A stretch of 64,000 nucleotides of DNA from an uncultured Verrucomicrobiae bacterium (GCA_963719495.1 CAVRCI010000013.1:157888-221887), one strand, 5' to 3'. Positions 1 through 34,276 are shown, numbered from the stretch's first letter. Notes: generated by a model from the sequence alone, not told the origin. Numbers and translations: made by a program.

Positions 1-771
1 AAAACCAACAACGTCAACGCCGACCGCCCGAACCGCCCCAAGGTGCCCAGCGCCGCGCCGAAGGTCGCGGACAAAGCCAACGATCGCAAAAACGACAACG
101 GCAACAAAAACCGGCAGGCGAAGGACAACAAACCAGCCGACCGCCCAAACGCGGACCGGAAAGGCAAATCGGACGTGAAGAAGCCCACCGAACGCCCGAA
201 CAAGCCAGCCGAGCGGAAGGCATCCGCGAACAAGCCAACCAAGCCGTCCGAAAAGCCAGCCAACCGTCCTTCGAACCAGGACCGTGAAAAAGCGGAGAAG
301 CGCGCCAACGACGACCAGCGCCAGAAGCAACAGCGCGAACAGGAACAGCGCAAGCAACAGGCTGACCGCCAGAAACGCCAGCAGCAGGAAGAGCGGCAAC
401 AGAAGCAGGCCCGCGACCAGCAGGCCGAGCGGCAGAAACAGGCCGACCGCCAGAAACAAGCCGAGCGCCAGAAGCAGGGAGAGCGTCAGCAACAGCAGCG
501 CCAGCAAGCCGAACGGCAACAGCAGGCCGAGCGGCAACAGCGCCAGAAGCAGGCCGAGCGCCAGCAGCAGGCTCAACGGCAGCAGCAAGCTCAGCGGCAA
601 CAGCAGCAGCAACAACAACAACAACGCCAGCAGCAGGCCCAGCGCCCGCAGCAGCAGCAGCGCCAGCAACAGCAGCGCCCCCAGCAGCAGCAACGCCAGA
701 ACTCGAATCGTGAAGACGACTCGAACCAAAAGAAAAAGAAGAAGAACAACAACAACGGCAACCGCAACTAG
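1..771 (+). CDS. Low-complexity Gln/Arg/Glu/Lys-rich protein, 5' end cut by window edge
   Basis: Frame 1 is open from nt 1, so the track start at GTG 43 is probably internal; it ends at TAG 769-771. The translation is AERQKQ/QQQRQQ-type repeats ending KKKKKNNNNGNRN, and the DNA is an imperfect CAG/CAA/CGC tandem repeat. No domain recognised. Other frames are also open here, so frame choice is uncertain. Confidence 0.4.
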   Translation, partial: KTNNVNADRPNRPKVPSAAPKVADKANDRKNDNGNKNRQAKDNKPADRPNADRKGKSDVKKPTERPNKPAERKASANKPTKPSEKPANRPSNQDREKAEKRANDDQRQKQQREQEQRKQQADRQKRQQQEERQQKQARDQQAERQKQADRQKQAERQKQGERQQQQRQQAERQQQAERQQRQKQAERQQQAQRQQQAQRQQQQQQQQQRQQQAQRPQQQQRQQQQRPQQQQRQNSNREDDSNQKKKKKNNNNGNRN

Positions 772-1726: not shown

Positions 1727-2320
1727 ATGATCCGTCCGAAATTCTTCCTGTCCCTCCCGTCCGTTCTCCTGGCCCTGGCGATCGCTTCAACACCCGCAAT
1801 CTTCGCTGAATCCGAAACCAGCGCCGCGAAGCCCGTCGTGGACTTCAGCGAACCATCCGACGCCGAGGCTTGGGACGTGGTGAACGACGGAGTGATGGGC
1901 GGGTTGTCCCGCGGCGAGATGAACGTGACCGACGGCGCGCTCGATTTCTCCGGCACCCTGTCGCTCGAGAACAACGGCGGCTTCTCGCTCGTCGAAACGT
2001 CCGGCGGGACTCGGAATTTCGAGGGAGCCACCGGAGTCCGCCTCCGCGTCAAGGGTGACGGACGCACCTACACCTTTCGCCTCGGCACCGACGCCCGCCA
2101 CCGCGGCGACCGCGTTTCCTACAGCGCCGATTTCGAGACCGAGAAGGGCGAATGGGTCGAGCGAGTCATTCCCTTCGCGGATTTGAAGCCGATTCATCAC
2201 GGTGAGTCCGTCGACGCCCCACCCATCAACCTCGCGAACATCGAGCAAATTGGCATCCTCATCGGCGACAAAAATGCCGGCCCGTTCGAGATCCAAATCG
2301 ACTGGATCGCCCTCGACTGA
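1727..2320 (+). CDS. CIA30 (complex I intermediate-associated protein 30)-like secreted protein
   Basis: Starts at ATG 1727 (MIRPKFFLSLPSVLLALAIASTPAIFA, a signal peptide). The motif WDVVNDGVMGGLSRGE...FSGTLSLENNGGF is characteristic of the CIA30 family. Confidence 0.65.
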   Translation: MIRPKFFLSLPSVLLALAIASTPAIFAESETSAAKPVVDFSEPSDAEAWDVVNDGVMGGLSRGEMNVTDGALDFSGTLSLENNGGFSLVETSGGTRNFEGATGVRLRVKGDGRTYTFRLGTDARHRGDRVSYSADFETEKGEWVERVIPFADLKPIHHGESVDAPPINLANIEQIGILIGDKNAGPFEIQIDWIALD

Positions 2321-2327
2321 CCCCACT

Positions 2328-2441
2328 TCCAACCCGGAGGGCGAGGCTCCCGCCGAGCCGTAACCTTCCACCCAAACCGCCCGAACTCTCACTCAACGCC
2401 GATCCCATAAAAAGACGGCTCGGCAGGAGCCTCGCCCTCCG
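2328..2441 (+). repeat. 114-bp palindromic (MITE/REP-like) element, copy A
   Basis: Arms cggagggcgaggctcccgccgagccgt and acggctcggcaggagcctcgccctccg are reverse complements with 1 mismatch, separated by about 50 nt. Copy A is about 97% identical by eye to copy B at 3162-3275 and ends 1 nt before the ATG at 2442. Confidence 0.85.
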
Positions 2442-3197
2442 ATGAAAGTCCCAACCATCCGCGGCGTGATTCGTCGGCGCCTGCTTCTCAACTACCGCGT
2501 CGATCCCGACGTGTGCGCAGCTCTGCTGCCGGGAAGCTTCCGCCCAAAGCTGATCCGCGGCCGCGCCATCGCTGGAATCTGCCTCATCCGACTGGAGCGG
2601 ATCCGCCCCAAGGGGCTTCCAGCGATCCTCGGCATCACGAGCGAGAATACCGCCCACCGCTTCGCCGTTGAATGGGACGGCGAGGACGGCAGCGCCCAGT
2701 CCGGCGTCTTCATCCCACGTCGTGACACCAGTTCCCAACTGAACGCCCTCGCGGGCGGACGACTCTTCCCGGGCGTGCATCACCGGTCGCACTTCACAGT
2801 CGAGGATGCCGCCGAAGAAATCGCGATCACCGTGCGGGCAAAAGCCTTCGATCAACCGCTCGTCGAAATCCGGGCGCACGAAGTCGCTCACTTCCCGACC
2901 ACCTCGGTTTTCGAATCGCTCGAAGAATCCTCCCAATTTTTCGAATCCGGCTGCGTCGGCTACTCCTCCGACCCTGGCTCACACCATCTCGACGGCCTCC
3001 GCCTCGCGGTCGATCACTGGGAAGTCACCGCGCTCGAAATCGAAAGCATTGCCTCCGCCTACTTCGACGATCCGGCAATTTTCCCCGCTGGCAGCACCAC
3101 GTTCGACCACGCGCTCCTCATGCGCGACATCCCCCACGAATGGCACGCCCTACCAGCCAAATCCAACCCGGAGGGCGAGGCTCCCGCCGAGCCGTAA
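2442..3197 (+). CDS. DUF2071-like (acetoacetate decarboxylase-fold) protein
   Basis: The N-terminus RRRLLLNYRVDPDVCAALLPGSFRP resembles DUF2071 proteins. The last roughly 11 codons (NPEGEAPAEP) and the stop codon lie inside repeat copy B. Confidence 0.55.
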   Translation: MKVPTIRGVIRRRLLLNYRVDPDVCAALLPGSFRPKLIRGRAIAGICLIRLERIRPKGLPAILGITSENTAHRFAVEWDGEDGSAQSGVFIPRRDTSSQLNALAGGRLFPGVHHRSHFTVEDAAEEIAITVRAKAFDQPLVEIRAHEVAHFPTTSVFESLEESSQFFESGCVGYSSDPGSHHLDGLRLAVDHWEVTALEIESIASAYFDDPAIFPAGSTTFDHALLMRDIPHEWHALPAKSNPEGEAPAEP

Positions 3198-3275
3198 TCT
3201 CCCACCCAAACCGCCCGAACTCTCACTCAACGCCGATCCCATAAGAAGACGGCTCGGCAGGAGCCTCGCCCTCCG
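3162..3275 (+). repeat. 114-bp palindromic (MITE/REP-like) element, copy B
   Basis: Same element and orientation as 2328-2441, with 3 substitutions seen. It overlaps the 3' end of the DUF2071-like CDS. Confidence 0.85.
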
Positions 3276-3435
3276 GGCTGGGAAGTCCACCGTTCCGGCG
3301 ATGAACCCGCGAATTCACCCCCTGCGCTCTCCGCATTCTCCTCGGTCGAAAACGCATTTCTTCAAGGCCACCAATCGACTTTCCGTCCCAAGTCTGTCAG
3401 GTTCCTCGCGAAACGGCTCCGGCCGACCCAATCCG

Positions 3436-5247
3436 ATGAAAAATCCGCTCCGCTCCCTCGCCCTTTTCCTCGCCACCCTCACCCCGGCGCTCGTCGTCGC
3501 CCAAGGTGTCGATTACGTCGAACCCTACCGCCCCTTCAGCGAATCCCCCGCGATCCGCGACACCACGAAAGGCGAGGTCGACCCGACCCGCACCCTCCAG
3601 ATCCCCCTCATCACCTGGGCCGCCGACGGCGTGACCGTCAGCGCGAACGGCGGCCTCGACCCGAACCCGAATTCCCCCCTCGCCCGCGCCGTCGGCGGAG
3701 CCGCGCAACTCACCGTCATCGACGACTTCGACAAGCAGGTCGCCAACTACGTTACCGGCAAATCCCCGTTCCTCCGCGGCACCGCCGACATGATCGCCCT
3801 CGTCAGCCAGGCCCTCAAAACCAAGGACCCCGGCCTCGAGCCCGTCGTCTTCCTCCAACTCTCCACCTCCACCGGCGCCGACGGATTCGTCGCCGTCGAC
3901 ACCGACCAACTCGCCGACCTGAAAGGCAAATCCATCGCCCTCCAGCTCAACGGCCCGCACCTCTCCCTCGTCGGCAACCTCATCAAGGACGCCGGACTCG
4001 CCCCGACCGACGTCACCCTCAAATTCGTGCCCGAGATCACCGCCCCTCCCGGCTGGAATCCCGACGAACCCGCGCTCGACCCCGCGAACGCCCTCCGCCG
4101 CGACGACACGCTCGCCGGCGCGGCCATGATCTTTCCCGACATCCTCGGCACCACCGGCGGCGGTGTCGGCACCGGACAGGAAGGCACGGTCAAGGGAGCC
4201 AAACCCGTCTTCACCACCAAGACCGCCGACAACGTCATCTTCGACGTCTACGCCGTCCGCAAAGACTTCCTCGCCAGCCACCCCGAGATCGTCGAAGGCT
4301 TCCGCGCCACCCACCTCGCCAAGCAGGAGGAATTCCTCGCCGACCTCGCGAACGTCGCTAAGAAGAACGACGCCGACCGCCGCAAGGTCGAAGCCTTCAA
4401 GGAAGCCAGCCGCCCGCTCGCCAAGATTTTCCTCCAGGACGCCGGCGCCGTGAACGACTACATCCTCTGGGTCGGCGTCGACTCCCGCCTCGCCGGCACC
4501 GCGGGCAACGCGAAGTTCTTCGACGAAAAAAATTCCGTCGGCCTCCGCGCCACCACCGACCGCATCCAGGCCTTCCTCGCCGAGATCGGCCTCATCGCCT
4601 CGCCCACCACCATCGCGTTTCTCGCACCCACCGCCACCGACAAACCCACCCAAGCCAAGCCCGCCCGCCAGACCTTCGCCAACGCGCAAGCCGTCCGCGA
4701 CGCCGCCGAGAGTCAGGACGCCAGCACGCTCTACGGCTACACGTTCCAGTTCCCCGCCGCCATGAGCGAGATGAGCTGGCAGGATTACCCCGACGTCTTC
4801 GCGAAGATCCACGAGACCGTCGCCCGCTACGGCGGCGCCATCGTCCAACTCCAAGGCCACGCCGACAATTTCTTCGCCAACTTCGTCGCCGCCAAACGCA
4901 AAGCCGGCGAGACCACCTACGAACGCCGCAACCGCACCACCGGCCAGTTCGACCAAATGGCTCTCCCCAAATACGAGGAGATCCTCAACGACGCGAACAC
5001 CCTCTCCTACTCCCGCGCCTTCGCGGTGAAAAAAGCCTACGCCGCCTACGTCCGCGAAGCCCTCAACCTCTCGCCCGACGAGGTCGACCTCTCCCGCTTC
5101 GACGTCCGCGGCATGGGAATCACCAAGCCCATCATCGCCAACCCGACCACCCCCGACGAACGCGCCCAAAACATGCGCGGCGAAATGGTCATCATCGCCG
5201 CCGAATCCGAAATCCCCGCCGACTTCGGAGCCGACGACCTGCGCTAA
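3436..5247 (+). CDS. Periplasmic substrate-binding-fold (NMT1/SsuA-like) / OmpA C-terminal domain fusion protein
   Basis: Trimmed to ATG 3436 (MKNPLRSLALFLATLTPALVVAQG, a signal peptide). The central part (LKGKSIALQLNGPHLSLVGNLIKDAGLAPTDVTL) resembles the NMT1/nitrate-sulfonate binding fold. The C-terminus (IVQLQGHADN...YSRAFAVKKAY...RGMGITKPIA...NMRGEMVI) is OmpA-like peptidoglycan binding. Confidence 0.6.
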   Translation: MKNPLRSLALFLATLTPALVVAQGVDYVEPYRPFSESPAIRDTTKGEVDPTRTLQIPLITWAADGVTVSANGGLDPNPNSPLARAVGGAAQLTVIDDFDKQVANYVTGKSPFLRGTADMIALVSQALKTKDPGLEPVVFLQLSTSTGADGFVAVDTDQLADLKGKSIALQLNGPHLSLVGNLIKDAGLAPTDVTLKFVPEITAPPGWNPDEPALDPANALRRDDTLAGAAMIFPDILGTTGGGVGTGQEGTVKGAKPVFTTKTADNVIFDVYAVRKDFLASHPEIVEGFRATHLAKQEEFLADLANVAKKNDADRRKVEAFKEASRPLAKIFLQDAGAVNDYILWVGVDSRLAGTAGNAKFFDEKNSVGLRATTDRIQAFLAEIGLIASPTTIAFLAPTATDKPTQAKPARQTFANAQAVRDAAESQDASTLYGYTFQFPAAMSEMSWQDYPDVFAKIHETVARYGGAIVQLQGHADNFFANFVAAKRKAGETTYERRNRTTGQFDQMALPKYEEILNDANTLSYSRAFAVKKAYAAYVREALNLSPDEVDLSRFDVRGMGITKPIIANPTTPDERAQNMRGEMVIIAAESEIPADFGADDLR

Positions 5248-5264
5248 ATTCAAATCACGAAATG

Positions 5265-5394
5265 GACAGGATTTACAGGATTGGAAGGATTGAATTCCAG
5301 ACTCTTAGCCCGGACCTCCCACTCACCCATCAGGTGACCGGTTCAGGTCGGACAACCCTTTCCGAATCATCCTGTTAATCCTGTAAATCCTGTC
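5265..5394. repeat. Inverted pair of GGATT-core short tandem arrays flanking a core of about 95 bp
   Basis: gacaggatttacaggat (5265-5281) is the exact reverse complement of atcctgtaaatcctgtc (5378-5394). Both extend as degenerate 8-9-nt tandem units (caggattt/acaggatt/ggaaggatt and atcctgtta/atcctgtaa/atcctgtct). The pair lies in the 178-bp gap between the stop at 5247 and the ATG at 5426. Confidence 0.8.
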
Positions 5395-5425
5395 TCATCC
5401 GCCTTTTGAGAATCAGTCCCAAGCC

Positions 5426-6274
5426 ATGCGATTTCCCATTCCCATCCTCCTCGCCAGCGCCCTCCTCGCGCTCGCGCCGCCCGCCCCCGCGCAGACCGAC
5501 GCCTTCCCCGGCCTCGAAGCCGAGCGCCTCGAGCAGAGCGGCACCGTCATCACGATCATCTTCGACGACTCCAGCTCGATGCGCGGCAACAAGCTCGACG
5601 AAGCCAAACGCGCCTTCCGCGACTGGCTCTCCACCGTCCCCGACAACCACCGCATCGGCCTCATCTCGCTCAACCAAGGCCAACTCGTCGCCAGCGAGCG
5701 CGGCAACAAAAGCGAAGTCGCCGACACCGTCGCCCGCATCCAGGCCGTCGGCACCACCCCCCTCGCCGACGCCATCGACCTCGCGAACGAGGAGATCGCC
5801 AAACGCAAAGCCAGCCGCCCCTTCGAGCGCCAGGTCCTCGTCGTCCTCACCGACGGCGAAGACAGCACCGCCCGCGGGGCCGCCGGGGTTCAGGACGAAT
5901 TGCAGGCCGCCGCCCGCGAAGGCACCGAGACCGTCGGCATCGGATTCTTCGGCGAAGGCGACTACATGAGTTCCGCCGCCACCCGCTACTTCGACGCCGC
6001 GAATTCCGAAGAACTGCGCGCCGGCCTTGCGAAAGTCGACGCCGAGATCGGCGACACCAGCGACATCGTCATCTCCCCCGAGATCGCCGAGGCCATGAAG
6101 ACCGTCTCCCTCGCCGACCTCCGCCCCACCGCCCCAGCGAATTCAAACGCCCGCGCCGACAACTCCGCCTCGCCCAACTCGACCACCAGCACCAACGACG
6201 GCCCGCCCTTCACCTGGATCATCATCCTCGTCATCGCCTATGGCGTCTACCGCGTCTTCTTCCGCCGAAAATAG
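5426..6274 (+). CDS. von Willebrand factor A (vWA) domain protein with signal peptide and C-terminal TM anchor
   Basis: Signal peptide MRFPIPILLASALLALAPPAPAQT. MIDAS-type motif IIFDDSSSM, then GTTPLADAI and VLTDGED. C-terminal hydrophobic anchor FTWIIILVIAYGVYRVFFRRK. Confidence 0.8.
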   Translation: MRFPIPILLASALLALAPPAPAQTDAFPGLEAERLEQSGTVITIIFDDSSSMRGNKLDEAKRAFRDWLSTVPDNHRIGLISLNQGQLVASERGNKSEVADTVARIQAVGTTPLADAIDLANEEIAKRKASRPFERQVLVVLTDGEDSTARGAAGVQDELQAAAREGTETVGIGFFGEGDYMSSAATRYFDAANSEELRAGLAKVDAEIGDTSDIVISPEIAEAMKTVSLADLRPTAPANSNARADNSASPNSTTSTNDGPPFTWIIILVIAYGVYRVFFRRK

Positions 6275-6286
6275 TCTGATCGCCGG

Positions 6287-7807
6287 ATGAAAAAATGGCT
6301 CACCGCCACCATCATTCTCGTCACCCTGGCGATGGTCCTCTGGGGCGTCAGCAAGCCGTGGCGCGAGAAAAACGAATGGGATTCCCTCGTCGAGCAGACC
6401 AGCGACGCCATCCCGACGAACCGCACCATCACCGTCCTCGGTGACGACTGGCTCGGCTACCTCGTCATCCGCTCCGGCGATTTCCAGAACCGGATGGCCC
6501 GCGCCGGCATCCGCGTGAACTTCGAAATCGAACCCGACTTCGACGCCCGTATCCGCGCCCTCCGCAACGGCACCGCCCAGTTCATCGTCCTCACCCTCGA
6601 CAGCTACCTCGTGAGCGGCGCGGCCAGCGATTGGCCCGGCTCCGCCATCTTCGTCATCGACGAATCCTTCGGCGGCGACGCGGTCATCGGCGACGCCGAC
6701 CTCGAGAACATCGACTCCCTCGACAACCCCACCGTCCGCGGAGCCTTCGTCGGCGACTCCCCGTCCGAATTTCTGCTCAAAAGCCAGACCTCCCACTTCA
6801 AGCTCGACCAACTCCGCCCCCGCCTCGCCAGCATGCGCGTCCCCACCGTCGAAGCCGCCAGCCAAGCCCTTGCCCGCGGCGACGTCGACTTCGCCGTCCT
6901 CTGGGAGCCCTTCGTCTCCCGCGCGTTGGACGAGATCGCCGGTGCCCACACCCTCGTCGACACCAAGCAGGCCCAGGGCCTCATCATCGACCTCTGCCTC
7001 GCCTCCCGCCGCGTCCTCTCCGACGACCCCCAACTCGCCGAGACCTTCACCCGCACCTACTTCGCCACGCTCCACGACCTCCTCAACCACCCCGAAAAAC
7101 TCCGAGCCGTCGCCGCGAAAGACGCCGACAAAAGCCCCGAAGAAGCCGCCACCATGCTCGCCGGCATCCGCTTCGCGAGCCTCGGCGACAACGCCATCGA
7201 CTGGCTCAGCCGCACCGGCACCCCCCAGCTCGTCGAGAGCATCGACTCCATTGGCACCATCCTCGCCGACAACGGCCAACGCGTCACCCTCCCCAACTCC
7301 GACCCCCTCAGCCTCCTCTACCGCAAGACCATCGCCGACGTCGCCGCCAAAGACGACGGCATTGCCCCCCTCCTCGCCCAAACCCCCAAGCCCAGCCAAA
7401 ACTACCGCTCCCTCACCGAAGCCGAATGGGCCGACCTGATCCCCCAGGTCAAAGGCACCCTCCTCGACGAGCCCATCACCTTCCGCCCCGGCTCGACCAC
7501 GATCCCCGCCGACTTCGAAGACGCCGTCCGAGCCGCCGCCCCAAAATTATCGCATTACCCTGACTACCGAATCATCGTCGAAGCCCACGTCGCCCCCAGC
7601 GCCGACGCCGAAGGCGACAAAGCCCTCTCGGAAAAAAGAGCCGAAGCCGTGAAGCAATTTCTCCAATGGGAGTGCGGCGTCCCCGCCACGAGAATCCACA
7701 CCATCGGAGCCGGCGGCACCAACCCGCCCGAACGAATCCAAAACCAAAGCCAAACCGCCTACGAACGCCGCTCCCGCCGAGCCAGAATCACCCTGGTAGG
7801 AGAATAG
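6287..7807 (+). CDS. Membrane-anchored substrate-binding-fold (NMT1/SsuA-like) / OmpA C-terminal domain fusion protein
   Basis: Starts 12 nt after the vWA stop. N-terminal anchor WLTATIILVTLAMVLWGV. The binding-fold part includes ITVLGDDWLGYLV..., RNGTAQFIVLTLDSYL and DVDFAVLWEPF. OmpA-like C-terminus: YRIIVEAHVAPSADAEGDKALSEKRAEAVKQFL...RRSRRARITLVGE. Confidence 0.6.
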   Translation: MKKWLTATIILVTLAMVLWGVSKPWREKNEWDSLVEQTSDAIPTNRTITVLGDDWLGYLVIRSGDFQNRMARAGIRVNFEIEPDFDARIRALRNGTAQFIVLTLDSYLVSGAASDWPGSAIFVIDESFGGDAVIGDADLENIDSLDNPTVRGAFVGDSPSEFLLKSQTSHFKLDQLRPRLASMRVPTVEAASQALARGDVDFAVLWEPFVSRALDEIAGAHTLVDTKQAQGLIIDLCLASRRVLSDDPQLAETFTRTYFATLHDLLNHPEKLRAVAAKDADKSPEEAATMLAGIRFASLGDNAIDWLSRTGTPQLVESIDSIGTILADNGQRVTLPNSDPLSLLYRKTIADVAAKDDGIAPLLAQTPKPSQNYRSLTEAEWADLIPQVKGTLLDEPITFRPGSTTIPADFEDAVRAAAPKLSHYPDYRIIVEAHVAPSADAEGDKALSEKRAEAVKQFLQWECGVPATRIHTIGAGGTNPPERIQNQSQTAYERRSRRARITLVGE

Positions 7808-7810
7808 ATA

Positions 7811-7917
7811 ATTCAAGGAGCGGCACCTTCCAGGTGCCGAAGTCCGGCGAATCGAGCAAAGCGAGAGAGCCGCTTCCATCTCGAGGAGCGGCGATTTGCA
7901 ATCGCCGAACCAACCCA
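7811..7917. repeat. Hairpin-rich intergenic repeat (aattcaaggagcggc... / agcggcgatttgcaatcgccgaaccaaccca)
   Basis: The 31-nt segment 7887-7917 recurs exactly at 55487-55517 and contains the hairpin gcggcgatt-tgc-aatcgccg(c). The 5' part aattcaaggagcggc recurs at 46056-46070. It lies between convergent stops at 7807 (+) and 7985 (-). Confidence 0.75.
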
Positions 7918-7984
7918 ATCCCGCAAAGCGGGACACTCCCCTCCCCAGCCAACTCGCGCACTGCGCGAATCCCCGCATCCGCGA

Positions 7985-9109
7985 TCAGAAGACGCACCGC
8001 CGCCGCCACCGGCGAACCAGCAGAAACCCGACAATCGCGAAAGCCACGAAAACGGAAATCTCCCCACCCTCAGGCACCGCCACGAACGAAAAACTCGCAT
8101 CCGACGCATTCTGAAAAAGACTGAAGTTCGCCGTGCTGTCATCGACCCAAGTCAGGTCGATCAAAAATGTCTGACTGCGCGACGCGTCGGGCGTCACCGT
8201 CCAGGATTTCGCTTCGAACAGAATCGATCCTTCCCGCAGCGAAATCCCCCACCCAGCCAAACCAGCCGCGCCCAGCGATCCCGATCCAAAACTGCCCCCC
8301 GCCTCGCCGGGAGGGGCAAACATTCCAGCGAAACTCATCCCGGGACCGCTCCCGTTGGTGGACGTCCCGCCGCCACCGCCTTCCCCGCCGTCACCACCGA
8401 ATCCTCCCGCGCCACCCGTTCCAGCCGCACCACCAACGCCAGCCAATCCGGCGGCGAATTGCCCACCCCGAATCGTCACGCTGGCCCCGCCCGTGATCTG
8501 CAATCCACTACCCGCGTCTCCGCCGACGCCGCCCGTCCCGCCAAGTCCGCCGACTCCCCCCTCTCCGCCGATTCCGCCGGGTGCGCCATCACCACCACGA
8601 CCTTCCGGCGGAAAAAACCCATTTCCGAAAGCATTACCGCCACTCCCACCGACTCCACCGGCACCGCCGCGACCACCGCTCCCGCCGAACCCACCAACTC
8701 CGCCCGTCCCCCCGTCGCCGCCGAAGAACGATCCTCCGATCACGAGATGAGCGCCACCCACGAGATCGAATCCGCTCCCCCCGGCAACGCCGCTATCACC
8801 CATCTCGCCAGTCTCACCAATCCCCCCCCGACCCCCGTCTTCACCCGGCGCTCCATCGCCGCCGTCCGCGTCGAATTCATCGCCGTCCTGCCCATCGAAA
8901 CCATTCGCTCCAGCTTCGCCCGGAGCCCCGGAAGCCCCCGTTGCAGCGCCGCCTCCATCGCCACCATTCGCTCCTGAATAACTCCCCACCGGAACCGTCG
9001 TCTGAGCGGAGAGGTCAGACAAAGCCACGACGCAAAGGCCAAAGCCGACGGCTCGCGTCAGAGCGGAAAATCGCTTGCCAGGAAAACTTTTCGGCAGGAA
9101 ATGCATCAC
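7985..9109 (-). CDS. Glycine-rich secreted protein with PEP-CTERM sorting signal
   Basis: N-terminal signal region (FGLCVVALSDLSAQT). Long GGxGG tracts (GDGGTGGVGGFGGSGGRGGAGGVGGSGG...). C-terminus VPEGGEISVFVAFAIVGFLLVRRWRRR fits the PEP-CTERM pattern of P-E motif, TM helix and Arg cluster. Confidence 0.7.
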   Translation of the reverse strand: MMHFLPKSFPGKRFSALTRAVGFGLCVVALSDLSAQTTVPVGSYSGANGGDGGGAATGASGAPGEAGANGFDGQDGDEFDADGGDGAPGEDGGRGGIGETGEMGDSGVAGGSGFDLVGGAHLVIGGSFFGGDGGTGGVGGFGGSGGRGGAGGVGGSGGNAFGNGFFPPEGRGGDGAPGGIGGEGGVGGLGGTGGVGGDAGSGLQITGGASVTIRGGQFAAGLAGVGGAAGTGGAGGFGGDGGEGGGGGTSTNGSGPGMSFAGMFAPPGEAGGSFGSGSLGAAGLAGWGISLREGSILFEAKSWTVTPDASRSQTFLIDLTWVDDSTANFSLFQNASDASFSFVAVPEGGEISVFVAFAIVGFLLVRRWRRRCVF

Positions 9110-9187
9110 CCGATCCTAAAGCAACCCGATTCCCGAGCAATCAATTCGTTCGCTTGGATCCTGATCGCGACCGTGAAAAATATCCCA

Positions 9188-9219
9188 AACCCGGAGGGCG
9201 AGGCTCCCGCCGAGCCGTA
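9188..9219 (+). repeat. Solo left arm of the 114-bp palindromic element
   Basis: aacccggagggcgaggctcccgccgagccgta matches the left arm of the copies at 2328 and 3162. No matching right arm was seen nearby. Confidence 0.7.
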
Positions 9220-9270
9220 TTCAATCGAACCGTCGTCGGCCGAAAGCCAAAGCAAGCGGCAAGTTCGGAG

Positions 9271-10455
9271 TCACAACTCCTCAGGCGAATTCAACAGCTC
9301 CGCCACGCGCTTCAGTAGCCGCCCCGCCGCGCCACCGTCCAGCACGCGGTGATCGAAGCTCAACGTGAACATCGCCTCCGTCACCGGCAAAAACTCCTCC
9401 AGCTCCGCATCCCAGCTCGGCACCGTCGCTCCCGCGCCCATGCCGAGCAGAATCGTTTGCTCGGGCAGCGGAATCGGCGTCGCCAACGTCAGCCCGAACG
9501 TCCCGTAATTCGTCACCGTCGCGATGGACCCACCCAGATCCGCGGGCGGCATCCGGCGCTGACGCGCCAAATCCACGAGACGATTGTAACGATCCACCAG
9601 ATCCGACAAGGAAGCCTGATCCGCGTTCCGGATCACCGGCACCATCACGCCATCCTCCGCCTCGACCGCGAACCCAATGTCCACCGACCGCGGATGCACG
9701 ATCCGATCACCGACCAACCGCCCCGCCGGCGCGCTGTTCTCACCCAGCGCCATGGCGAGCGCCCGGAGCGCGTAAAGCGCCGGACCCGGCTTCGGCGTCT
9801 GCGTTTTTCGGTGCGCGAGCAGTTTGTCCATCCGCACTGGGATCACCACGGTAGCCAACGGCCGCGTCCAACTCCGCCGCATCGCATCGGCCACCGCAAC
9901 GCGCATCGACGACGCGGGCGTCATCCGGTTGCGCTCGAGGTCGCCGAGGAATTTCTCCAGATCGTCGATCGTCACCCGCCCCGACGCCCCGCTCCCCGCG
10001 ATCCCCGCGAGATCCGCTTGGTGGAGCCCGAGTTCCCCCATCCGCGCCTTCATCCGCGGCGAAAGATACGTCGCCCCGCCCGCCGGAGCCGGCACCGGCA
10101 GCCCGCTCACCGTTGGCGCGACCTCCTGCGAGACCGCCTTCTTCGGCGCGCGCTTCTCCGCCGCCGGTTTCTCGATTGGCTCGGCCTCGAACCCGATTCG
10201 CGCCGCTTCTTCGTCAGTCACTTCGATGTAACCCAGCACCGATCCGACCAAATAACTCTCGTCCACCGTGACCTTCAGCTCGCCCAACGTGCCGTTGCAC
10301 GGAGCGGTCACGCCCATTACAGCCTTGTTCGTTTCAACCTCGATGATGTCGGAATCGGCCTCGATGGTGTCGCCCTGCGCGAAGAGCACTTTCACGACGG
10401 TCGCCTCGGCGATCGACTCGCCGAGCTGGGGCATGATGATGGGAACCTGGGGCAT
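9271..10455 (-). CDS. 2-oxoacid dehydrogenase complex E2 (dihydrolipoamide acyltransferase)
   Basis: Trimmed to ATG 10455 (MPQVPIIMPQLGESIAEATV...). Lipoyl domain with IEVETNKAV. E3-binding-like segment YLSPRMKARMGELGL...GSGASGRVTIDDL. Catalytic motif SFDHRVLDGG. Confidence 0.9.
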   Translation of the reverse strand: MPQVPIIMPQLGESIAEATVVKVLFAQGDTIEADSDIIEVETNKAVMGVTAPCNGTLGELKVTVDESYLVGSVLGYIEVTDEEAARIGFEAEPIEKPAAEKRAPKKAVSQEVAPTVSGLPVPAPAGGATYLSPRMKARMGELGLHQADLAGIAGSGASGRVTIDDLEKFLGDLERNRMTPASSMRVAVADAMRRSWTRPLATVVIPVRMDKLLAHRKTQTPKPGPALYALRALAMALGENSAPAGRLVGDRIVHPRSVDIGFAVEAEDGVMVPVIRNADQASLSDLVDRYNRLVDLARQRRMPPADLGGSIATVTNYGTFGLTLATPIPLPEQTILLGMGAGATVPSWDAELEEFLPVTEAMFTLSFDHRVLDGGAAGRLLKRVAELLNSPEEL

Positions 10456-18707: not shown

Positions 18708-21700
18708 CTAGCGGGCGGCGGGTTCCGGCGTCGGCGTCGGTTCCGACGATGCGGAGACCGCCCCACCGCCGTAGCCCACGACTTCGACGACGAAGATGGA
18801 CGGCGCTTCTTCACGCGGCGCCGCTGTCGGTTGGAAATTTCCGGCCGCGTCGTCGGCGCTGCTCTGCGCCGCACCCGCCGTGCCCGCCGCGCTGGTGAGA
18901 CCGCCGACGTTGGGCGCGCTGACGACAGCCGGAGCGGGTGCGCCGGTCGTCGTGCCACCGGCCACGGAGTTACCGGCGTTCCGGAACTCCGTTGCCGCAA
19001 CCGTCAGGTTGCCGGTCGCCCGAATTCCCGCGTCACCCGCGTCGACGACACCAACGGGAGCGATGAGATCGACGTCGCCGGGCGGAATGCCCCTGACCGT
19101 CGCCAGGACGCCAATTCCGCCGCCCGTCGCCAAGCCGGCCAGATCGGTCTGCACATCGGCGCTCGACGGATCGAGCAGCACGCGGGTTGGCGGCGCGGAC
19201 TGCACCGTCTTCGCCGACGATCCGGCGGCGATGTCTCCGGTCGAGGACCAGATGATTTGATTGCCGCCGCGCAGCGTGAAGATCCGACCGATTCCGATGT
19301 CAACGCTGTCGTCGGTGAAGACCGAAATATCACCACCGCTTTCGGTCACGATCCCCGGGGGAACGAGGGCCGCGCCGAGGGTGGAATTCGCGAGCGTAAG
19401 TCCGCCGCCCGGCGCCAGGAGCTGAATCCCCCCGCCGCTCCGCGTCCGAACGTCGCGGGCGCGGGTCAGCAACTCACCGCGGTATCTCCCATTGAACAGC
19501 GCGTCGATCGCCTCAAATCCACGGTCGTAATTCTGGAACGTCGGACTCGCCGGATCGACCGCTCGGCGACCCGTGGTCCGCAGCACGTCGTAAAAGACAT
19601 CGAGCGCGAGCTGATTCCGCCGGACGTTCGGAAGCGCCAGGAATTCCTCCAGCGTCAAATCGCCCAGTCCGCCCAGTCCGCCCAGTCCGCCCGCCGCGGT
19701 CGTGGCGGTCGGATCATCGACATCCTCGAAAAGGAACGCCTCGATGAACGCGTCGAAGTCGAGGTTCGATCCCGCGAGACCCTCCGCCGTCTCGCGCAAT
19801 CCGGCGATCGCGATCACGCTCGAACCCGTGAAAGGCAGCGCCGCGTTGCGGGAGTTGCCCAGCGTCGTGATGCCGACGCCCGTGCCGTCGGCGTTGTTTT
19901 CTCCGGTGCCGAGATCAAGGTCGCGTCCAGCCAGAATCTCGAGCACACCGGGGCCGCCAAGCTGAATGTCACCCGCGAGCGGCACCTCGCCGAGGTTGAG
20001 CTGGTTGCCGCTCGCGACAGCCGCCGAACGCCCGGGCGAATTTGCATTGTAAAGGAGAATGTCGCGCCCCGCCGAGATCACCGTCGTGTCGGTCTCGCTG
20101 GTCTGCTGCAAATAGAACGAGACGTCCGTGATGTCCCGCCCGGCGAAGATCCGGGTGACCTTCGGACTGAATAGCGTCAAGCCTGAGATGCTCCCGTTGC
20201 TCGCGTAGAGGCGCACCGGGTCCGGGTCGTCCCGGTGGAGGAGATCGGACGAATGCAGCGCCTGCCTGGTCTGCAGGTCGAGAGTGGGAGCGCCCGTCTC
20301 GGCGAACAGCGCGTTCACGAAGAAGAGAAAATCGTCACCCGATTGGCGCGCCAAGCCCGTCGTGCCGACGAGGCTCTGATACGCAAACGGACTCTCGATC
20401 CCGGGAACGTTCGCCGGATCGGCGTCCGATACGATGATCCGGCTGGAGCCGAAGCCAACCACCGGCGCGCCGTTGACCGTCGTCACACCCTGGGGCTGGA
20501 GACCGTTGATCGCACCCCCGGCGATGAGTTCCAGCGTCCCGTTCGGCGCGGGCGCAAGCGTGAGATCGCCCGCGACGTTGATGTCACCCGAGAAGGCCGT
20601 GACTCGTAGCGTCGGCGGTTTCAAGCCAACGACGGTCGAGAACGAAGCCACGCTTGTCTCGTTCAGGCGGAGCCACGGTTGAAACGTCGAGGCCGTCGTT
20701 CGCTGGGCGTCGAAGACCAGGACATTCTGGAACCACGCGAGCAGCGTCGGCGTGCTGCCGCCGGCCCCAACGGTCGGGAGCACAACGCTCTCGCGCAGCG
20801 TCACCGACCCGCCGAGTGAAGTCACGTCGACCGCGCTCTTTGGGTCGTAGGTCGAGAAATACGACTTATACCAATACGTGTTGTTGTAACCGCCGGGCAG
20901 GAGGAACGGATTGGCGACCGGTCCGAGCAGGATGTCGCCACGGGCTCGCACGTCGAAGCTTCCCTTGCCAAGAAACAGCGTCGTCGGGAGCCACGTCAAC
21001 TCGTCGAGCGGTGCTTGGTTTGCAAAGACCCCGACCGACGGCGAGCGACTCGAATTCGTCCGAATCTCGCTGCCAGCATCGAGCAATCCGCGGCCACGCT
21101 CGACGTAGTAGACGCCGCCATCGATCGCGTTGCCGGCCCGCACGGTGAGGTCGCCTCCGCCCAACTCGACGAGTGCGTCGGCGTTGGGGATTCCCTTGGG
21201 CGACCGTGCGTTGGTCGGCACAACGGCGTCGACGTTCGTCACGTTGTTCCCAGCAAGCAGCGAGACATTCCCGCCCCCGAGGGCGCCGACGCCCTCGAAG
21301 AAATTGCTGAAATCCACCCACCAACTCGTCGACAGAATTTGCGGGAAGGTCGGCCCGTCGAACCGCCCAGCCCCGAATGCCCCCGTCTCCGGATCGACGA
21401 ACCCGACGCGGTAGAGCCAATTGATCGGCAACTGCCGGCTTGAATCGGTCAGCAGCGTCACGCCATCGAAGTCGAGGCGGTAGCGCGCAATGTCGCGCCC
21501 GGCCTCGAGCGTGACGTCGCCGCCGCCCATCGTGAACTGCGGCTGGTAACCCGGGTTTTGCTGCACCGCCCCGAGGAAAAACTGCCCGCCATTCGCGTTG
21601 AGGAACGGCACGTCGTAGGTGCCGCCCAGCGTCGCGTCAGCCACCTGCGTGCCGACCGTGTAGATCGACGCGATTTGATTCAGTAGTTGAATGTCCCGCC

Positions 21701-24700
21701 CGGCGACGATGTCGATATCGCCGCTGCCCGTGCGAATGACTTGAAAAGAGCGCGGGATCGTGTTTCGCGTCGAGGCGTTCGATCCGGAAGGAAACGCCGC
21801 CCCGGTCCCGGTCGGCTTGCCAATTTTAAACGACCCCTTGTCAGCCGCAAGCAGACCCAGCGCAAGGACCCGACTGAAATCCGCCGCGGTGAAATCCGCG
21901 CCCGCCGCCAACCGGTAGCTCCACGATTGCGCGTTGAGCGGCACCTCGGGGTTGCGCTCGACGAGGCGCGAATTGAAGGCACTCGTGAAGAACCCGTCGC
22001 TCAGCGTATTGAAGAAAACGAGATCCTCCGATGCCCGCAACGTCAGGATGCCCGGGACGCTCCGCGGGCCGAAACGGAAAGTCGCGAGATTCCAATCGTT
22101 GTTCTGCGGCGAAAATTCCGAGCCGAGCCGCAGGTCGCCCGTGCGGTTCACGATCTCGACACCGGGCCGGATGGTGAGGATCGATCCGAGAGCCCCGTCG
22201 TCTCCGACGAGCCGGGTTCTCATCGCCCCGTAGTTCGCCGATTCCGTTCCGGCCGCACCGAGGAAGGTGGCCGCGTCGCTGTTGATCGTGTTCCGCAGCC
22301 CGGTCGTGATCTCCTCACCCACCCCGGTAAGGTCGTAGAGCCGGTAACCCTCGGCGATGACGCTCGACGCGCCGCGGATTTCCCCCGCAATCGCGGCGAT
22401 GGCCAGATCGTCACCTGCCGCCGTGCGCGGAGCCCGCAGGTGCAGGGTGCCCGTGAACCAACCCCGATCCTCCTGGCTATTCTCCCGCGCCTGGGCGACC
22501 CGCAAATTGATCAGCGACCCGCGAAGGATTTCGATCTGACCCGTCTCGTCGATCACACCGTCGATCTGGGAACCGGCTTCGAGCAACACCGAGCCACCCT
22601 TCCCGGCGGCGTCAAATTTTTTCCCGGACGCGTCCAACACCGCCCCGTCCGCCAGCACCACGCTCCCGGAGGCCTTCAGCTCGATGCGCCCACCCGTTAC
22701 CCCCGACGCATCGATCCGCCCGGCCACGCGGATCGACCCCGCGTCGGTTGCCAAACGGTAGACCGCCGCCTTCGCTTCTCCATCAATGCGCACGTCGCCC
22801 GAGCGAATTCGATAATCCCGCAGGGCGTTGAAGTTCGCGATGTTCAGGACCTCATCCAGCCCGCCGAGATTTTCGATTTCCGACACGTCGAGTTGGAACG
22901 AACCACTCGCCCCACGTCGGCTACCCCCACCTAGCAGGGTCCCGCCCGCCACGAAATCACCCAGCCCCGCCTCGACGGCGATCCGCCCCGCGTCACCCCG
23001 CCGCGGATCCGAGGAGACGTCGATCACGCTGTCTTCGCCGAGCAACACCGAACCCCGGTCCGAGATCAACGAAACGTTCCCGGCGTCGGTGAAGCGAACG
23101 ATGTCGTAGATCGAGATCCGCCGACCCGAGACGTCCAGGCGTCCTCCCACCGTCACGTCCCCCTCGGTTGCCCGTAACGTGAGCAGTCCACTGGGCAGCG
23201 AGATCGCGGAGTCGGCGCGCACGCTGGTCCCCGTGATCGACAGATTCGCCCCCAGGCCGCCCGAACCCGGGCGCGCCTTCCCGCCCGCCGCCAGGAGCGC
23301 CACGTCACCCGCCGCCGTGATCGTGCGGATTGCGGACCGTCCGCCACTGATGCTCGGCGTCGTCACCGTCAGCGTTCCGTCCGTCGTGAGGGCTCCTTCG
23401 CCCGTGAAGCGCAAACGACGGTCAGCCGTGAATTCGAGCGTCGCAAAGTCGCGGAAGGCCAGGTCGTTGGCCGCGAGTTCGATCGTGCGCCCGGTGAAGG
23501 CCAACCCGCCCCGCGGCGGCTCGGGAACCTCACCTTCCACCGCCGCGGCGGGTTCCGGCACGGTCACGTTGCCGGCGTTGCCGAGCAGAACGCTGTCCGC
23601 GAAAAAGCGAGCCGGGCGTTTCCCCGTCTGGAAGCTCCGGATCTCACCCGCATTGATGGAAAGAAAATCCCCACCCCGGAATTGCCCCGACCCGTAGACG
23701 TCGAACGTCGAATAGCTCAACAGTGACAGCGATCGGGCATCGCCGAGCTGTCGCAGCAGTCGCCCACGCAGGATGAGACCCACCGTCGGCTCGATCTTAC
23801 CCGGTTTGCGGAGGGCCACCGTGATCTGACCACTGTTCAGCCCGATGGATTCGCCCTCGATGACCGCGCGACGCGCTAGCGTCGTCGAGTAGGTCGAATC
23901 CAACAACACACTCGTGCCCGAGATCACCGATCCGCGGCCCACGAAGAGCGAGGGTTCGCGGGAAGGAGTCACCCCGGTCCGCAGGGTCGTCGCGTCGAAG
24001 TCGCTGCTTACCCGCACCAGCACGCCGTCCCGCCGCAGGAGTAGCCGATCCGCTTCGCCACCCAACGATCCGCGTTGGATCACCGACGAACCCGGTGCCA
24101 GCGTGATCAAGCGATTGGCGGAAAGAACGATCTCCGGCCCGACCAATGGCGTGCCCGCGTTGTCGAGGAAGATCCCGCTCGAGAGCGTTCGCACGAACGT
24201 GCCGTTGGCGACATCGATCCGCTCCCCACCGAGGAAGAGACTCTCGGCGTCGAAGCTGTTGAGCAGTGAAGCTCGAATCCGGGCGACCGCGGTCTCCGGT
24301 TGTCCGAAGGTGCCCACGCCGAAGAGATCCGGTGGGAATTCCGCCGTGGCGGTGTCGATCCCGCGTCCCGTGACCAGGATGTTGAGGGGTGTGCTGATGT
24401 CGATCCGGGCGCCACGCCCGCCCATTGGTGCCGACCCCAGCACCCCGCCACGCACGACCAGGCGATCCAGGCCCTGTAGCACCAGGCGTCCGGCGTCGAT
24501 CGGCAGTCGCGGCACGTCGACCTCGAGCGCCCGAGCGCGATTGCTCAGGAAGCGGTTCGCCGTGAGCAGACGATACTCGGCCCGATTCAGCACGTTGCCA
24601 CGATCCAGGACTTCAAACGACGAGAAGACCGTCGGCACGTCGCGGTCACGATTCAACCCATTGTAGCGGTAGCCCGAGACCAGCCGCGTCCCATCCGGCT

Positions 24701-32312: not shown

Positions 32313-34265
32313 TTAGAATTTGGCGTTGAGATCGAGTTGGAAGCGGTCTTCTCGGAGCCGCGGGCCGGCGATGCTTTCGCCGCTCAGGTAGCTGGCCGTG
32401 AACCACACGTTCTTGGACAGCGCGACGCTGCCGCTCACGGTGTAGCCCTTGAGATTCGTGCCGCCGCCGCCGAAGTTCGAGTCGTTGAATCCATCGACGA
32501 CCGAGTCAGACTCGACGTAGCGGTAGCCAAACGCGACGCCCCAGTCCCACCGCTTGGCCAGCTTGGCCGTGCCGACCTCGACGCCCACGATCCACGCGTT
32601 CCCGCCGCCGATGAAGTCGCCGACGTCCGACAGATCGTCCGGGTCGATGTCCCCTCGATTGTTCACCGCGATGTCGTTGATCGCTCCCTGGTCGAACGCC
32701 AGGTTCTTGACGTAGTCGCCAAAGACGGAGATCACGACCGGCTCGAAATAGGTGAGACTCAGCCGACCCGCGAAAGCGAGATTCTGAAACTCGGTCGCGA
32801 GTCCGTAATATTGAAACTGGTTGATGGTCCCGAAGTTGTTCGCTTCGGTCGGAATGATGTTGCGGATCGGGCGGTAGGTGTTGCCCTTCTGCGCGAACAT
32901 CGGGCGGCTGTTGTCGGTGCTCCCGGCGTCGTTCGAATCGAGCGGCACGTAGGGGTCCGAGAGTTGGCCCTCGATGTTGTCGAAATAAAAGTAACCGAGC
33001 GCCGTCGTCACGTTCACGTGCTTCGTGACATCCCAATCGAGGCCGCCCTGGATCGCGTAGAGGTATTTGTCGTAGCTCTCGATTTTGTCGGGCGAGTTGC
33101 TGGGGAAATCGAACGCGGTGTTGAAGATGGGAAATAGACCCGTCGTGAAAAACGGCGTGAGCCCGAAGCCGACGTCATACCGGGCGCTGGCCGCGATCCC
33201 GTCGAACGCGATGTCGTTGTCCCACATGATCTGCGACGTCCGGAAGAACGGGTTATCGAAACGCCCAACCTCGATCCCGATGCTGCGGTCGGGTCCCTGC
33301 GTCAGCTCGTATTTGATGAACGCGCGGTCGATCCAGATCGAATACTTTTGGAAGTTCCCGTCGGGCGATCCGAGAGTCTGGTTCGCCGACACGGGGGAAT
33401 TGCTGTTGCCGGACGCCAACCGGAATCCGGTGGTGAAGCCGTCGCCCAGCTGGATCTCCGCGCCGAGCCGCAACCGAATCCGCAGACGACTGCGGTTGTC
33501 GCTCACGTTCAACTGCGGGGAAAATTCGTCGCCCGTCACGTCGAACGGCGCGCCACTGTTGATCGCGTCGAAGTTCGGAAACACGCCCGAATCATCGTTC
33601 CCGCTCGGAAAACGAACGCCCTCGTAGCGGAACCGCACGTCCGCGAAGGGCCGCACGTCGCGCACCCAGCTCGGCAGAAAGGAGTCATCCGCGAGCAGCT
33701 CGGCCTTCGTCGCCGCCAGCACGTCTTCCTTGATCTCATCGCGGATCTGATTTCGCACGAAGCTTGGCACGTAGGTCACCCGCACCGATTCCTCGTCCAG
33801 GGGCGGGGGCGTGTTCGCGATGAGCGTCTCCGCGGCGGCGTTCGTCTCCGAGATCGCCTGCGTCGCGAGGGCGTCCTTCGTCCGCGCGATCTCGGCGTCC
33901 ATCTCGGCCTGCGCGATCAACTCGGCGGCGTCCTCGCGGGTGAGGATGCCTTTCTCGACCAGGCGGTTGATCAGATTAATCGTCACGCTGTGCGACGGCG
34001 ACGGGAGATCGTTCACGTCGAGCGGCCGCTCGGGCTCGAAGTCGGGCGGCGTCAGCAAATCGGGAGCCGCCGCGAGGTCGTAATCCCCGTCGCCCATCGG
34101 CAGCGCCTCGGCGGAAACGTCGACCGTCTCGGTGCGCTCGGCGTTCACCGCTTCAATCGGGACGTTCGCGGAAGCGTTCGTGATTTCCTGCGGCGTCTGC
34201 GCGTGAAGGACGCCCGCGGCCAGGGCGGCGAAAGCGGTTCGAATGGAAGTGCTCCTCAGTTTCAT
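32313..34265 (-). CDS. Outer-membrane beta-barrel (putative porin family-like) with long N-terminal periplasmic extension
   Basis: Trimmed to ATG 34265 (MKLRSTSIRTAFAALAAGVLHAQT, a signal peptide). The C-terminal roughly 450 aa show alternating amphipathic strands and end ...DRFQLDLNAKF with a terminal Phe, an OMP signature. The N-terminal roughly 200 aa are non-barrel and include ETVDVSA (nt 34110-34130). Starts 11 nt after the tonB stop. Confidence 0.6.
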   Translation of the reverse strand: MKLRSTSIRTAFAALAAGVLHAQTPQEITNASANVPIEAVNAERTETVDVSAEALPMGDGDYDLAAAPDLLTPPDFEPERPLDVNDLPSPSHSVTINLINRLVEKGILTREDAAELIAQAEMDAEIARTKDALATQAISETNAAAETLIANTPPPLDEESVRVTYVPSFVRNQIRDEIKEDVLAATKAELLADDSFLPSWVRDVRPFADVRFRYEGVRFPSGNDDSGVFPNFDAINSGAPFDVTGDEFSPQLNVSDNRSRLRIRLRLGAEIQLGDGFTTGFRLASGNSNSPVSANQTLGSPDGNFQKYSIWIDRAFIKYELTQGPDRSIGIEVGRFDNPFFRTSQIMWDNDIAFDGIAASARYDVGFGLTPFFTTGLFPIFNTAFDFPSNSPDKIESYDKYLYAIQGGLDWDVTKHVNVTTALGYFYFDNIEGQLSDPYVPLDSNDAGSTDNSRPMFAQKGNTYRPIRNIIPTEANNFGTINQFQYYGLATEFQNLAFAGRLSLTYFEPVVISVFGDYVKNLAFDQGAINDIAVNNRGDIDPDDLSDVGDFIGGGNAWIVGVEVGTAKLAKRWDWGVAFGYRYVESDSVVDGFNDSNFGGGGTNLKGYTVSGSVALSKNVWFTASYLSGESIAGPRLREDRFQLDLNAKF

Positions 34266-34276
34266 CAAATTAGTCT

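Follow-up and report, generated by a model that had tools for sequence, protein, structure and literature searches.

A VWA gene flanked by two binding-fold/OmpA fusion genes forms the core of an uncharacterised cell-envelope module conserved in at least seven bacterial phyla

The ways in which bacteria sense the space between membrane and cell wall are poorly understood, as is the recruitment of PspA/ESCRT-III-type (endosomal sorting complex required for transport III) repair beyond the classical proteobacterial Psp system. Operons with PspA, AAA+ and ATP-binding cassette (ABC) genes that also encode proteins labelled 'SIG+PBPB+OmpA' and 'SIG+TM+Snf7' were described by Ravi et al. (mSystems 2024; PMC11237479), with OGG56892.1 of Candidatus Handelsmanbacteria as an example, and peptidoglycan and the transported solute were proposed as the respective ligands of the OmpA and PBPB domains. 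The periplasmic binding fold itself is best known from receptors such as TauA, in which the ammonium group of taurine is held by Glu106, Thr132 and Asp205, and in which the Glu106Ala substitution abolishes binding (PMC6906117). In this work, we followed up a prediction made for positions 3436 to 7807 of a 64,000-nucleotide stretch of DNA from an uncultured Verrucomicrobiae bacterium (GCA_963719495.1, CAVRCI010000013.1:157888-221887; this whole stretch is hereafter the window), where two genes encoding fusions of a substrate-binding fold with an OmpA-like domain (G1 and G3) flank a gene for a membrane-anchored VWA protein (G2). For binding fold-OmpA fusions or for the trio, the only literature description that we found was that of Ravi et al., whose main text and supplement do not mention a VWA protein (PMC11237479). 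The original prediction, which could match the trio to no characterised system, therefore holds for the VWA-containing trio, which is undescribed in the literature, whereas the one-protein PBP-OmpA version was already in print, within PspA/AAA+/ABC operons.

Our results indicate that the trio is the core of an uncharacterised cell-envelope module conserved in at least seven bacterial phyla. A one-genome-per-species scan yielded 380 loci, 80 of which were retrieved, representing Verrucomicrobiota, Planctomycetota, Sumerlaeota, Desulfobacterota (including the cable bacteria Electrothrix and Electronema), Acidobacteriota, Chloroflexota and Gammaproteobacteria (Hahella, Chromatiales, Lysobacterales). 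These loci were analysed by six-frame calling of open reading frames (ORFs) and family assignment; 59 of them contained 2.6 kb or more of sequence 3' of G1, and 31 had full 10-kb flanks. Co-conservation in related genomes had been named beforehand as a check of the prediction, and the order G1-VWA-G3 was found collinear in 56 of the 59 loci with enough sequence, across the seven phyla, and in all 31 fully flanked ones, with intergenic spacers that in relatives are mostly shorter than 50 bp or reduced to 4-nt overlaps. At the DNA level, the window is homologous to its closest relatives over positions 3451-7807 only, with G1 85-87% and G2-G3 approximately 78% identical; since these limits coincide with those of the trio, the trio behaves and moves as a discrete unit. 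We found about 100 relatives of G3 and 441 proteins matching G1, mostly from Verrucomicrobiota and with distant members in Pirellulaceae, and an exhaustive hidden Markov model (HMM) search of 1.84 billion representative proteins returned approximately 228 clusters (50% identity) at E <= 1e-30. Among the carriers, Hahella sp. NBU794 (NZ_CP192738.1, locus L083) is a named strain with a complete genome. The relatives are annotated as hypothetical, as 'OmpA family' or as 'phosphate ABC transporter substrate-binding/OmpA family protein'; the last of these labels is misleading, and the binding fold-OmpA fusions constitute a distinct family.

All three ORFs lie on the same strand at the positions originally given, and their features are listed in Table 1. 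In a window with a G+C content of approximately 65%, their G+C content at third codon positions (GC3) is 0.83-0.89, as in real genes, and the ratios of nonsynonymous to synonymous substitution rates (dN/dS) were 0.14-0.20 for G1, 0.27-0.46 for G2 and 0.15-0.35 for G3, so that all three genes are under purifying selection. G1, G2 and G3 make up a single operon. Comparison of G1 with G3 by hhalign gave a probability of 95.2% (E 2.6e-8) over 423 columns at 18% identity, with an alignment that covers the OmpA region, and the two are accordingly distant paralogs over their whole length. Pfam and NCBIfam scans found no enzymatic or nucleotide-binding domain in G1, G2 or G3. A reading of the locus as an anti-phage defence system was excluded, as PADLOC models gave zero matches for the three proteins and for the fourth protein described below.

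Table 1. Positions of the trio, of its predicted protein regions and of the insert between G1 and G2, counted from the first nucleotide of the window
Feature	Coordinates	Strand	Description	Basis
G1	3436..5247	+	603 aa; predicted secreted protein with TauA/SsuA-like type-II periplasmic binding fold and divergent OmpA-like domain	ORF, translation
G1 signal peptide	3436..3507	+	~aa 1-24, MKNPLRSLALFLATLTPALVVAQG; predicted cleavable, Sec-type	sequence; low pLDDT at N-terminus (AF2)
G1 binding fold	3583..4590	+	~aa 50-385; invariant ITWAADGV, FLRGT, STGADGF, NGPH, DVYAVR	
G1 OmpA-like domain	4684..5205	+	~aa 417-590; GHAD (D477), LSYSRA (R527), ~45-aa insert (helix and beta-hairpin)	
G1 acidic C-terminal tail	5200..5244	+	AESEIPADFGADDLR; conserved; E590, E592 and D601 invariant; predicted disordered	
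Palindromic insert, G1-G2 spacer	5250..5409	.	~160 nt; perfect 18-bp arms at 5265-5282 and 5377-5394	
G2	5426..6274	+	282 aa; predicted periplasmic VWA protein with signal peptide and C-terminal transmembrane anchor	Pfam, ortholog alignment
G2 MIDAS DxSxS	5564..5578	+	D47, S49, S51; in addition T in GTTPL and D in LTDGED	
G2 C-terminal transmembrane helix	6209..6262	+	FTWIIILVIAYGVYRVFF, then cytoplasmic RRK	sequence
G3	6287..7807	+	506 aa; predicted inner-membrane-anchored protein: N-terminal transmembrane helix, TauA/SsuA-like fold and OmpA domain	
G3 signal-anchor transmembrane helix	6299..6352	+	~aa 5-22, predicted uncleaved	sequence; AF2 helix at residues 2-21
G3 binding fold	6419..7351	+	~aa 45-355; D131, S160 and D235 align with TauA Glu106, Thr132 and Asp205	
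G3 OmpA-like domain	7418..7798	+	~aa 378-504; R451 of LSxxRA invariant; AHVA replaces GHTD	

The domain assignments made from the window for the three proteins were borne out by Pfam, family profiles, AlphaFold2 (AF2) models and Foldseek, and the predicted topology likewise agrees, with cleavable signals on G1 and G2, a C-terminal transmembrane (TM) helix on G2 and an N-terminal anchor on G3, as read from sequence. As its signal peptide lacks a Cys, G1 is not a lipoprotein. Its score against Pfam NMT1 was 17.8 bits, below the cutoff of 20.5, and against SsuA_fam (TIGR01728) it reached 27.4 bits, the cutoff being 163.5; G3 scored 39.9 bits against the same model, and every NCBIfam binding-protein cutoff was missed by both proteins. 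The G1 family profile matched TauA (E 3.3e-7) and the OmpA-like domain of Omp38 (E 6.3e-6) in the PDB, and the AF2 model (predicted local distance difference test, pLDDT, 87.9; predicted template modelling score, pTM, 0.84) had TauA (6ssy) as its best Foldseek fold match, with E 1.2e-10. Pfam OmpA (PF00691) was not matched by G1 at E <= 1, its gathering cutoff not being reached, and NCBIfam gave weak matches of MotB/TssL/YiaD type for this region. The signature GHxD...LSxxRA is retained, with D477 and R527 invariant or nearly invariant among 78 sequences, and the domain keeps both canonical peptidoglycan-contact residues. That the acidic tail of G1 serves as a MIDAS (metal ion-dependent adhesion site) ligand is speculation only, and a likeness of this tail to post-domain segments of VWA proteins, considered as a docking motif, was dropped for its low information content. 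The same tail contains, at 5212-5239 (IPADFGADD), a 28-nt match of 86% identity to 7502-7529 at the start of the G3 OmpA-like domain (IPADFEDAV); this match may be due to chance or may be a remnant of the G1/G3 paralogy, and it too carries too little information to serve as evidence of a docking motif.

The G3 family profile matched OmpA-like domains (E 5.5e-18, 5wtp) and TauA (E 5e-5) in the PDB, along with MotB, TssL and YiaD structures (E 2e-12 to 2e-4), and G3 itself matched Pfam OmpA over residues 398-486 with 46.6 bits (cutoff 27.2). Its AF2 model (pLDDT 90.8, pTM 0.83) had E. coli TauA (6ssy, E 1.9e-15) as the best Foldseek match, followed by SsuA, ThiY/Thi5 and PqqT. The middle protein, G2, scored 53.0 bits against VWA (PF00092; cutoff 23.8) and 42.8 bits against VWA_2, and its MIDAS is complete, the DxSxS motif and the Thr and Asp that follow being nearly invariant across 73 orthologs. 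A cleavable Sec-type signal peptide is predicted at its N-terminus, and the C-terminal membrane anchor is predicted to hold a MIDAS-competent VWA domain in the periplasm; anchoring within the G2 family differs by clade, by means of a C-terminal TM helix, of none, or of an N-terminal lipobox and linker.

The usual unit is larger than the trio. A fourth gene lies directly 3' of G3 in 52 of the 59 loci, distant phyla included, and elsewhere in the locus in 3 more; it encodes a protein of 240-290 aa with an N-terminal hairpin of two TM helices and a cytoplasmic coiled coil, and the trio together with this two-TM coiled-coil gene constitutes a tetrad. No Pfam family was found in any of 19 members of the fourth protein, and a PDB profile search gave coiled-coil noise only. 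A Snf7/PspA-like identity for this protein, as in the 'TM+Snf7' label, was unsupported by hhalign, Pfam and the PDB.

Around the core, further genes recur. A NitT/TauT-type ABC importer is encoded in the same operon in 10 of the 31 fully flanked loci, from several phyla, with linked ABC genes in Opitutales, Planctomycetota, Acidobacteriota, Hahella and others; its permease is TauC/SaoP/SsuC-like, its ATPase SaoA/TauB-like, and its stand-alone binding protein best matches TIGR03427. The original prediction had taken the lack of an adjacent ABC permease or ATPase as a sign that the binding folds are probably not import receptors. The observation stands for the entire window, in which no NitT/TauT-type ATPase and no ABC permease was found, the sole ABC ATPase (46874-47995) being of MalK type; the conclusion drawn from it does not, as the absence is a local accident in view of the importer operons elsewhere. 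PspA/IM30 and a two-domain classical AAA+ ATPase, of the CDC48/FtsH type, are linked in 7-8 of the 31 loci, lying upstream of the core in some Verrucomicrobiota and downstream in others. Finally, a 198-aa protein without a Pfam family recurs in 13-14 loci of Verrucomicrobiota and Hahella, directly after the fourth gene or before G1 (L006, 15068-15724; L009, 8089-8685; L018, 9297-9932; L083, 7527-8111; and others), and is probably a fifth accessory component. In the window, searches with tblastn and profile HMMs found no PspA, AAA+, NitT/TauT permease or 198-aa gene.

Variants of the G1 protein and the residues of the binding clefts offer clues to function. In one relative, P0342 (800 aa), a complete G1-type binding fold/OmpA-like module is joined to a TM helix and a Hanks-type Ser/Thr kinase, so that a G1-type module can act as an extracytoplasmic sensor; other relatives feature a tandem binding fold (P0230), PKD domains (P0304) or a cadherin domain (P0316). 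In family-profile alignments to E. coli TauA, the equivalents of Glu106 are D149 in G1, D131 in G3 and an Asp in the ABC-linked binding protein, and those of Asp205 are D270, D235 and again an Asp; both positions are invariant or nearly so within each family. As the acidic pair is kept in G1, G3 and the ABC-linked binding protein, a small amine-bearing solute is a probable ligand, and an amine-bearing ligand common to all three binding folds is weakly suggested.

On the basis of these results, we tentatively infer that the trio belongs to a complex that responds to a ligand and connects the inner membrane with the cell wall. G1, G2 and G3 would assemble where the inner membrane meets the peptidoglycan, with G1 fixed to the wall and G3 spanning from membrane to wall; the MIDAS of the VWA domain would clamp an acidic residue of a partner protein, and the binding folds would respond to a small amine-bearing solute. 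The fourth protein, with its two TM helices and cytoplasmic coiled coil, would then probably relay ligand occupancy or membrane-wall geometry inward, the targets, where encoded nearby, being the PspA/AAA+ membrane-maintenance proteins or the NitT/TauT importer. A more ambitious version, which we hold to be doubtful, regards the tetrad as an unrecognised signalling or adhesion machine across the inner membrane, with the VWA protein as receptor and the coiled-coil protein as transducer, shared by at least seven phyla including the cable bacteria, that would monitor a periplasmic amine solute or membrane-wall coupling and recruit PspA/AAA+ repair or gate the ABC importer. The prediction of a periplasm-spanning sensor or tether complex thus survives in part: the idea of a co-functioning periplasmic complex holds, and the kinase fusion P0342 lends the sensor role some support, but the trio is incomplete, since the tetrad is usual. 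A periplasm-spanning extent is not supported; the anatomy of the proteins fits a bridge from inner membrane to peptidoglycan that has no outer-membrane component.

Several observations weigh against the bridging, ligand-responsive complex. The OmpA domain of G3 lacks the canonical Asp that binds diaminopimelic acid (Ala in the window, Ser in most of the family), although the Arg (R451) is invariant, and its wall binding is uncertain for this reason. The mapping of TauA residues rests on alignments of approximately 16-18% identity, and the sulfonate-binding Gln30 of TauA could not be placed on G1 or G3, because their N-terminal strands align unreliably. The fourth protein has no detectable likeness to PspA (probability of 0.2% in hhalign against the co-encoded PspA family); lacking PspA/Snf7 similarity, it is connected to an ESCRT-III-like function by gene context alone. 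Neither ABC nor PspA/AAA+ genes occur within 10 kb in 18 of the 31 fully flanked loci, so that the core is autonomous, and where the ABC linkage does exist it suits a transport role equally well. Finally, the fourth gene is itself absent from the 64-kb window, as assessed by tblastn and profile HMMs. A homolog of it, P0379, lies on a different contig (L087, Logan ERR12040027) with a divergently transcribed gene in the place of G3 and the 198-aa gene following; it is 72% identical in protein and 78.5% in DNA to the ortholog in locus L006, much as G2-G3 of the window compare with L006. Since this divergence matches and no G3 precedes P0379, the genome of the window or that of a sibling probably carries the fourth gene apart from the trio, which suggests a split tetrad.

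Transport offers a different account of the same genes, which we consider possible though not probable: G1 and G3 would be extra capture receptors for a NitT/TauT ABC importer, G3 being tethered like the receptors of Gram-positive bacteria and archaea, G1 holding a reserve of ligand at the wall and the VWA protein acting as a scaffold, with permease and ATPase encoded elsewhere in the genome. The 10 loci of 31 with a TauC/SsuC-type permease and a TauB/SaoA-type ATPase in the same operon fit this account, as do the fold and acidic pair that G1 and G3 have in common with the canonical binding protein and the proposal of Ravi et al. that the PBPB domain binds a transported solute. Nevertheless, a stand-alone binding protein accompanies every ABC set, and because the linked importer thus brings its own dedicated receptor, G1 and G3 are not needed in that capacity and would rather be accessory. 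The permease is absent within 10 kb in 21 of the 31 fully flanked loci, a wall-fixed binding protein is unable to travel to a permease, no NCBIfam binding-protein cutoff is reached by G1 or G3, and the VWA protein, the coiled-coil protein, PspA and the AAA+ ATPase are left unexplained.

The opposite simplification, that the trio is a purely structural staple between inner membrane and peptidoglycan, analogous to Pal, OmpA or MotB, with binding folds that act as protein-protein modules and hold no small ligand, appears unlikely to us. It would account for the two OmpA-like domains, one of them on a membrane-anchored protein, for the lack of enzymatic or nucleotide-binding domains in any component, for the many loci that stand alone with no energy-coupled partner (most of them), and for pTM values of 0.83-0.84, which suggest a fixed orientation between domains; however, the cleft positions equivalent to the TauA ligand contacts are invariant across phyla, the kinase-fused relative argues for signal input, and the repeated association with ABC and PspA/AAA+ genes speaks for a regulated role. 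A relationship to the marine-proteobacterial sortase system, with its VWA target and the OmpA-like PdsO, or to the Bat/MoxR-type VWA aerotolerance operons is very improbable, and both readings were rejected: the NCBIfam scores that hint at them (G2 against marine_srt_targ, 26.5 bits; G3 against PdsO, 33.5 bits; G2 against BatB, E 0.015) are weak and far from the cutoffs of 551.65 (TIGR03788), 152.2 (TIGR03789, PdsO) and 350 (BatB), profiling of 86 loci turned up neither a sortase or sorting signal nor a MoxR ATPase or TPR partner, and the linked AAA+ protein is of the classical CDC48/FtsH type, not MoxR. The ligand-responsive complex at the membrane-wall interface is the reading that we tentatively retain.

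The window carries palindromic elements within and around the trio. The spacer between G1 and G2 measures 178 bp, compared with 0-50 bp in relatives, and contains a palindromic insert whose predicted RNA fold has a free energy of -61.2 kcal/mol (z -5.1). The 18-mer of its arms was found once in the close relative L008, at an unrelated position, and an Rfam search of positions 2300-9400 gave nothing meaningful, the insert having no match. The insert is probably an element like a miniature inverted-repeat transposable element (MITE) or a repetitive extragenic palindrome (REP), and it may uncouple the expression of G1 from that of G2-G3. A separate palindromic repeat of 119 nt is present as two full copies (2323-2441 and 3157-3275; 96% identical) and a half copy (9185-9222), each with inverted arms of approximately 38 nt on either side of a GGCTCGGCAGGAGCC core; one of them extends into the DUF2071 ORF at its 3' end and supplies the tail 'PEGEAPAEP'. 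These copies bracket the trio and a neighbouring Gly-rich gene, and might be the mark of a rearrangement by which trio and fourth gene were parted.

On both sides the trio adjoins unrelated housekeeping or unknown genes: upstream lie DUF1206, CIA30 and DUF2071 genes, and downstream the convergent gene for the Gly-rich protein and then genes for 2-oxoacid dehydrogenase E2, E1-beta and E1-alpha and for LeuC. The Gly-rich protein (374 aa; 7985-9109, minus strand) has a signal-like N-terminal segment, no Pfam match, and a C-terminus made of a hydrophobic helix followed by RRWRRR, similar to a PEP-CTERM sorting signal. At the edge of the window, a 242-aa ORF (43-771, plus strand) without a Pfam match has an extremely low-complexity sequence dominated by Q, R, K and E, with long QQQRQQAERQQ runs, and lies in a strongly A-rich stretch with an AT skew of 0.68; this ORF is possibly genuine, or else the end of a gene truncated by the window edge. 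Farther downstream, a two-partner secretion pair was found, consisting of a 3947-aa TpsA-like exoprotein (TPS and DUF3739 domains; 18708-30551, minus strand) and a TpsB partner of the ShlB/FhaC transporter type with a POTRA domain (37335-38966, minus strand). Other envelope genes, all on the minus strand, encode a Porin_5 outer-membrane protein (32313-34520), a MotA/ExbB channel fused to DUF2341 and Laminin_G (35406-37325) and a TamB-like protein (41316-44618), and a 1205-aa fusion of CheB methylesterase, CheR methyltransferase, PAS, HisKA and HATPase domains occupies 60343-63960 (minus strand).

Taken together, the module is compact and sharply bounded. A metal-dependent adhesion domain and a putative membrane transducer are combined in it with ligand-binding folds and wall anchors, and PspA/AAA+ genes and an ABC importer stand repeatedly beside it. 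Its significance is larger than could be seen from the window, since the trio is the core of a module that crosses phyla, yet it is also less isolated, given its links to transport and PspA.

Among described systems, the operons of Ravi et al. come closest. The binding-fold/OmpA protein of those operons, which is secreted, is matched here by G1 and G3, a membrane-anchored coiled-coil protein is common to both, and in many Verrucomicrobiota the trio has PspA, a two-domain classical AAA+ protein and an ABC permease-ATPase pair as neighbours. They differ in having one PBPB-OmpA protein and no VWA protein, whereas here two paralogs surround a VWA protein and the core is often alone; the window has none of the PspA, AAA+ and ABC partners and no coiled-coil gene, as judged by tblastn and profile search, and the coiled-coil protein of the trio's relatives shows no Snf7/PspA similarity. 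With TauA and SsuA (6ssy, 2x26, 3ksx), G1 and G3 share the type-II periplasmic binding fold and the acidic residues equivalent to Glu106 and Asp205, but at 16-18% identity they remain below the family cutoffs (TIGR01728, TIGR01729, NMT1), both are fused to OmpA domains, G3 is membrane-anchored, and the window holds no cognate permease.

Other resemblances concern single components. G3 has the N-terminal TM helix and C-terminal OmpA-like domain of MotB/PomB, of TssL/TagL (type VI secretion) and of YiaD; in contrast to these, it carries a binding fold of approximately 310 aa between anchor and OmpA domain, lacks the canonical Asp, and is encoded in an operon with no MotA/ExbB-type partner. G2 resembles integrin I-domains and BatA/BatB in its VWA domain with a complete MIDAS, and its single-pass anchor with a very short cytoplasmic tail is integrin-like; unlike them, it is predicted to be periplasmic and not exposed on the cell surface, it has no MoxR or TPR partner, and its anchoring differs between clades. 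As for YfiBNR and the Ser/Thr kinases with binding-fold sensors, the trio encodes no kinase, cyclase or output domain, and the likeness lies in mechanism alone, namely in the use of an OmpA-like peptidoglycan-associated protein in periplasmic sensing, and in the kinase fusion of one relative, P0342.

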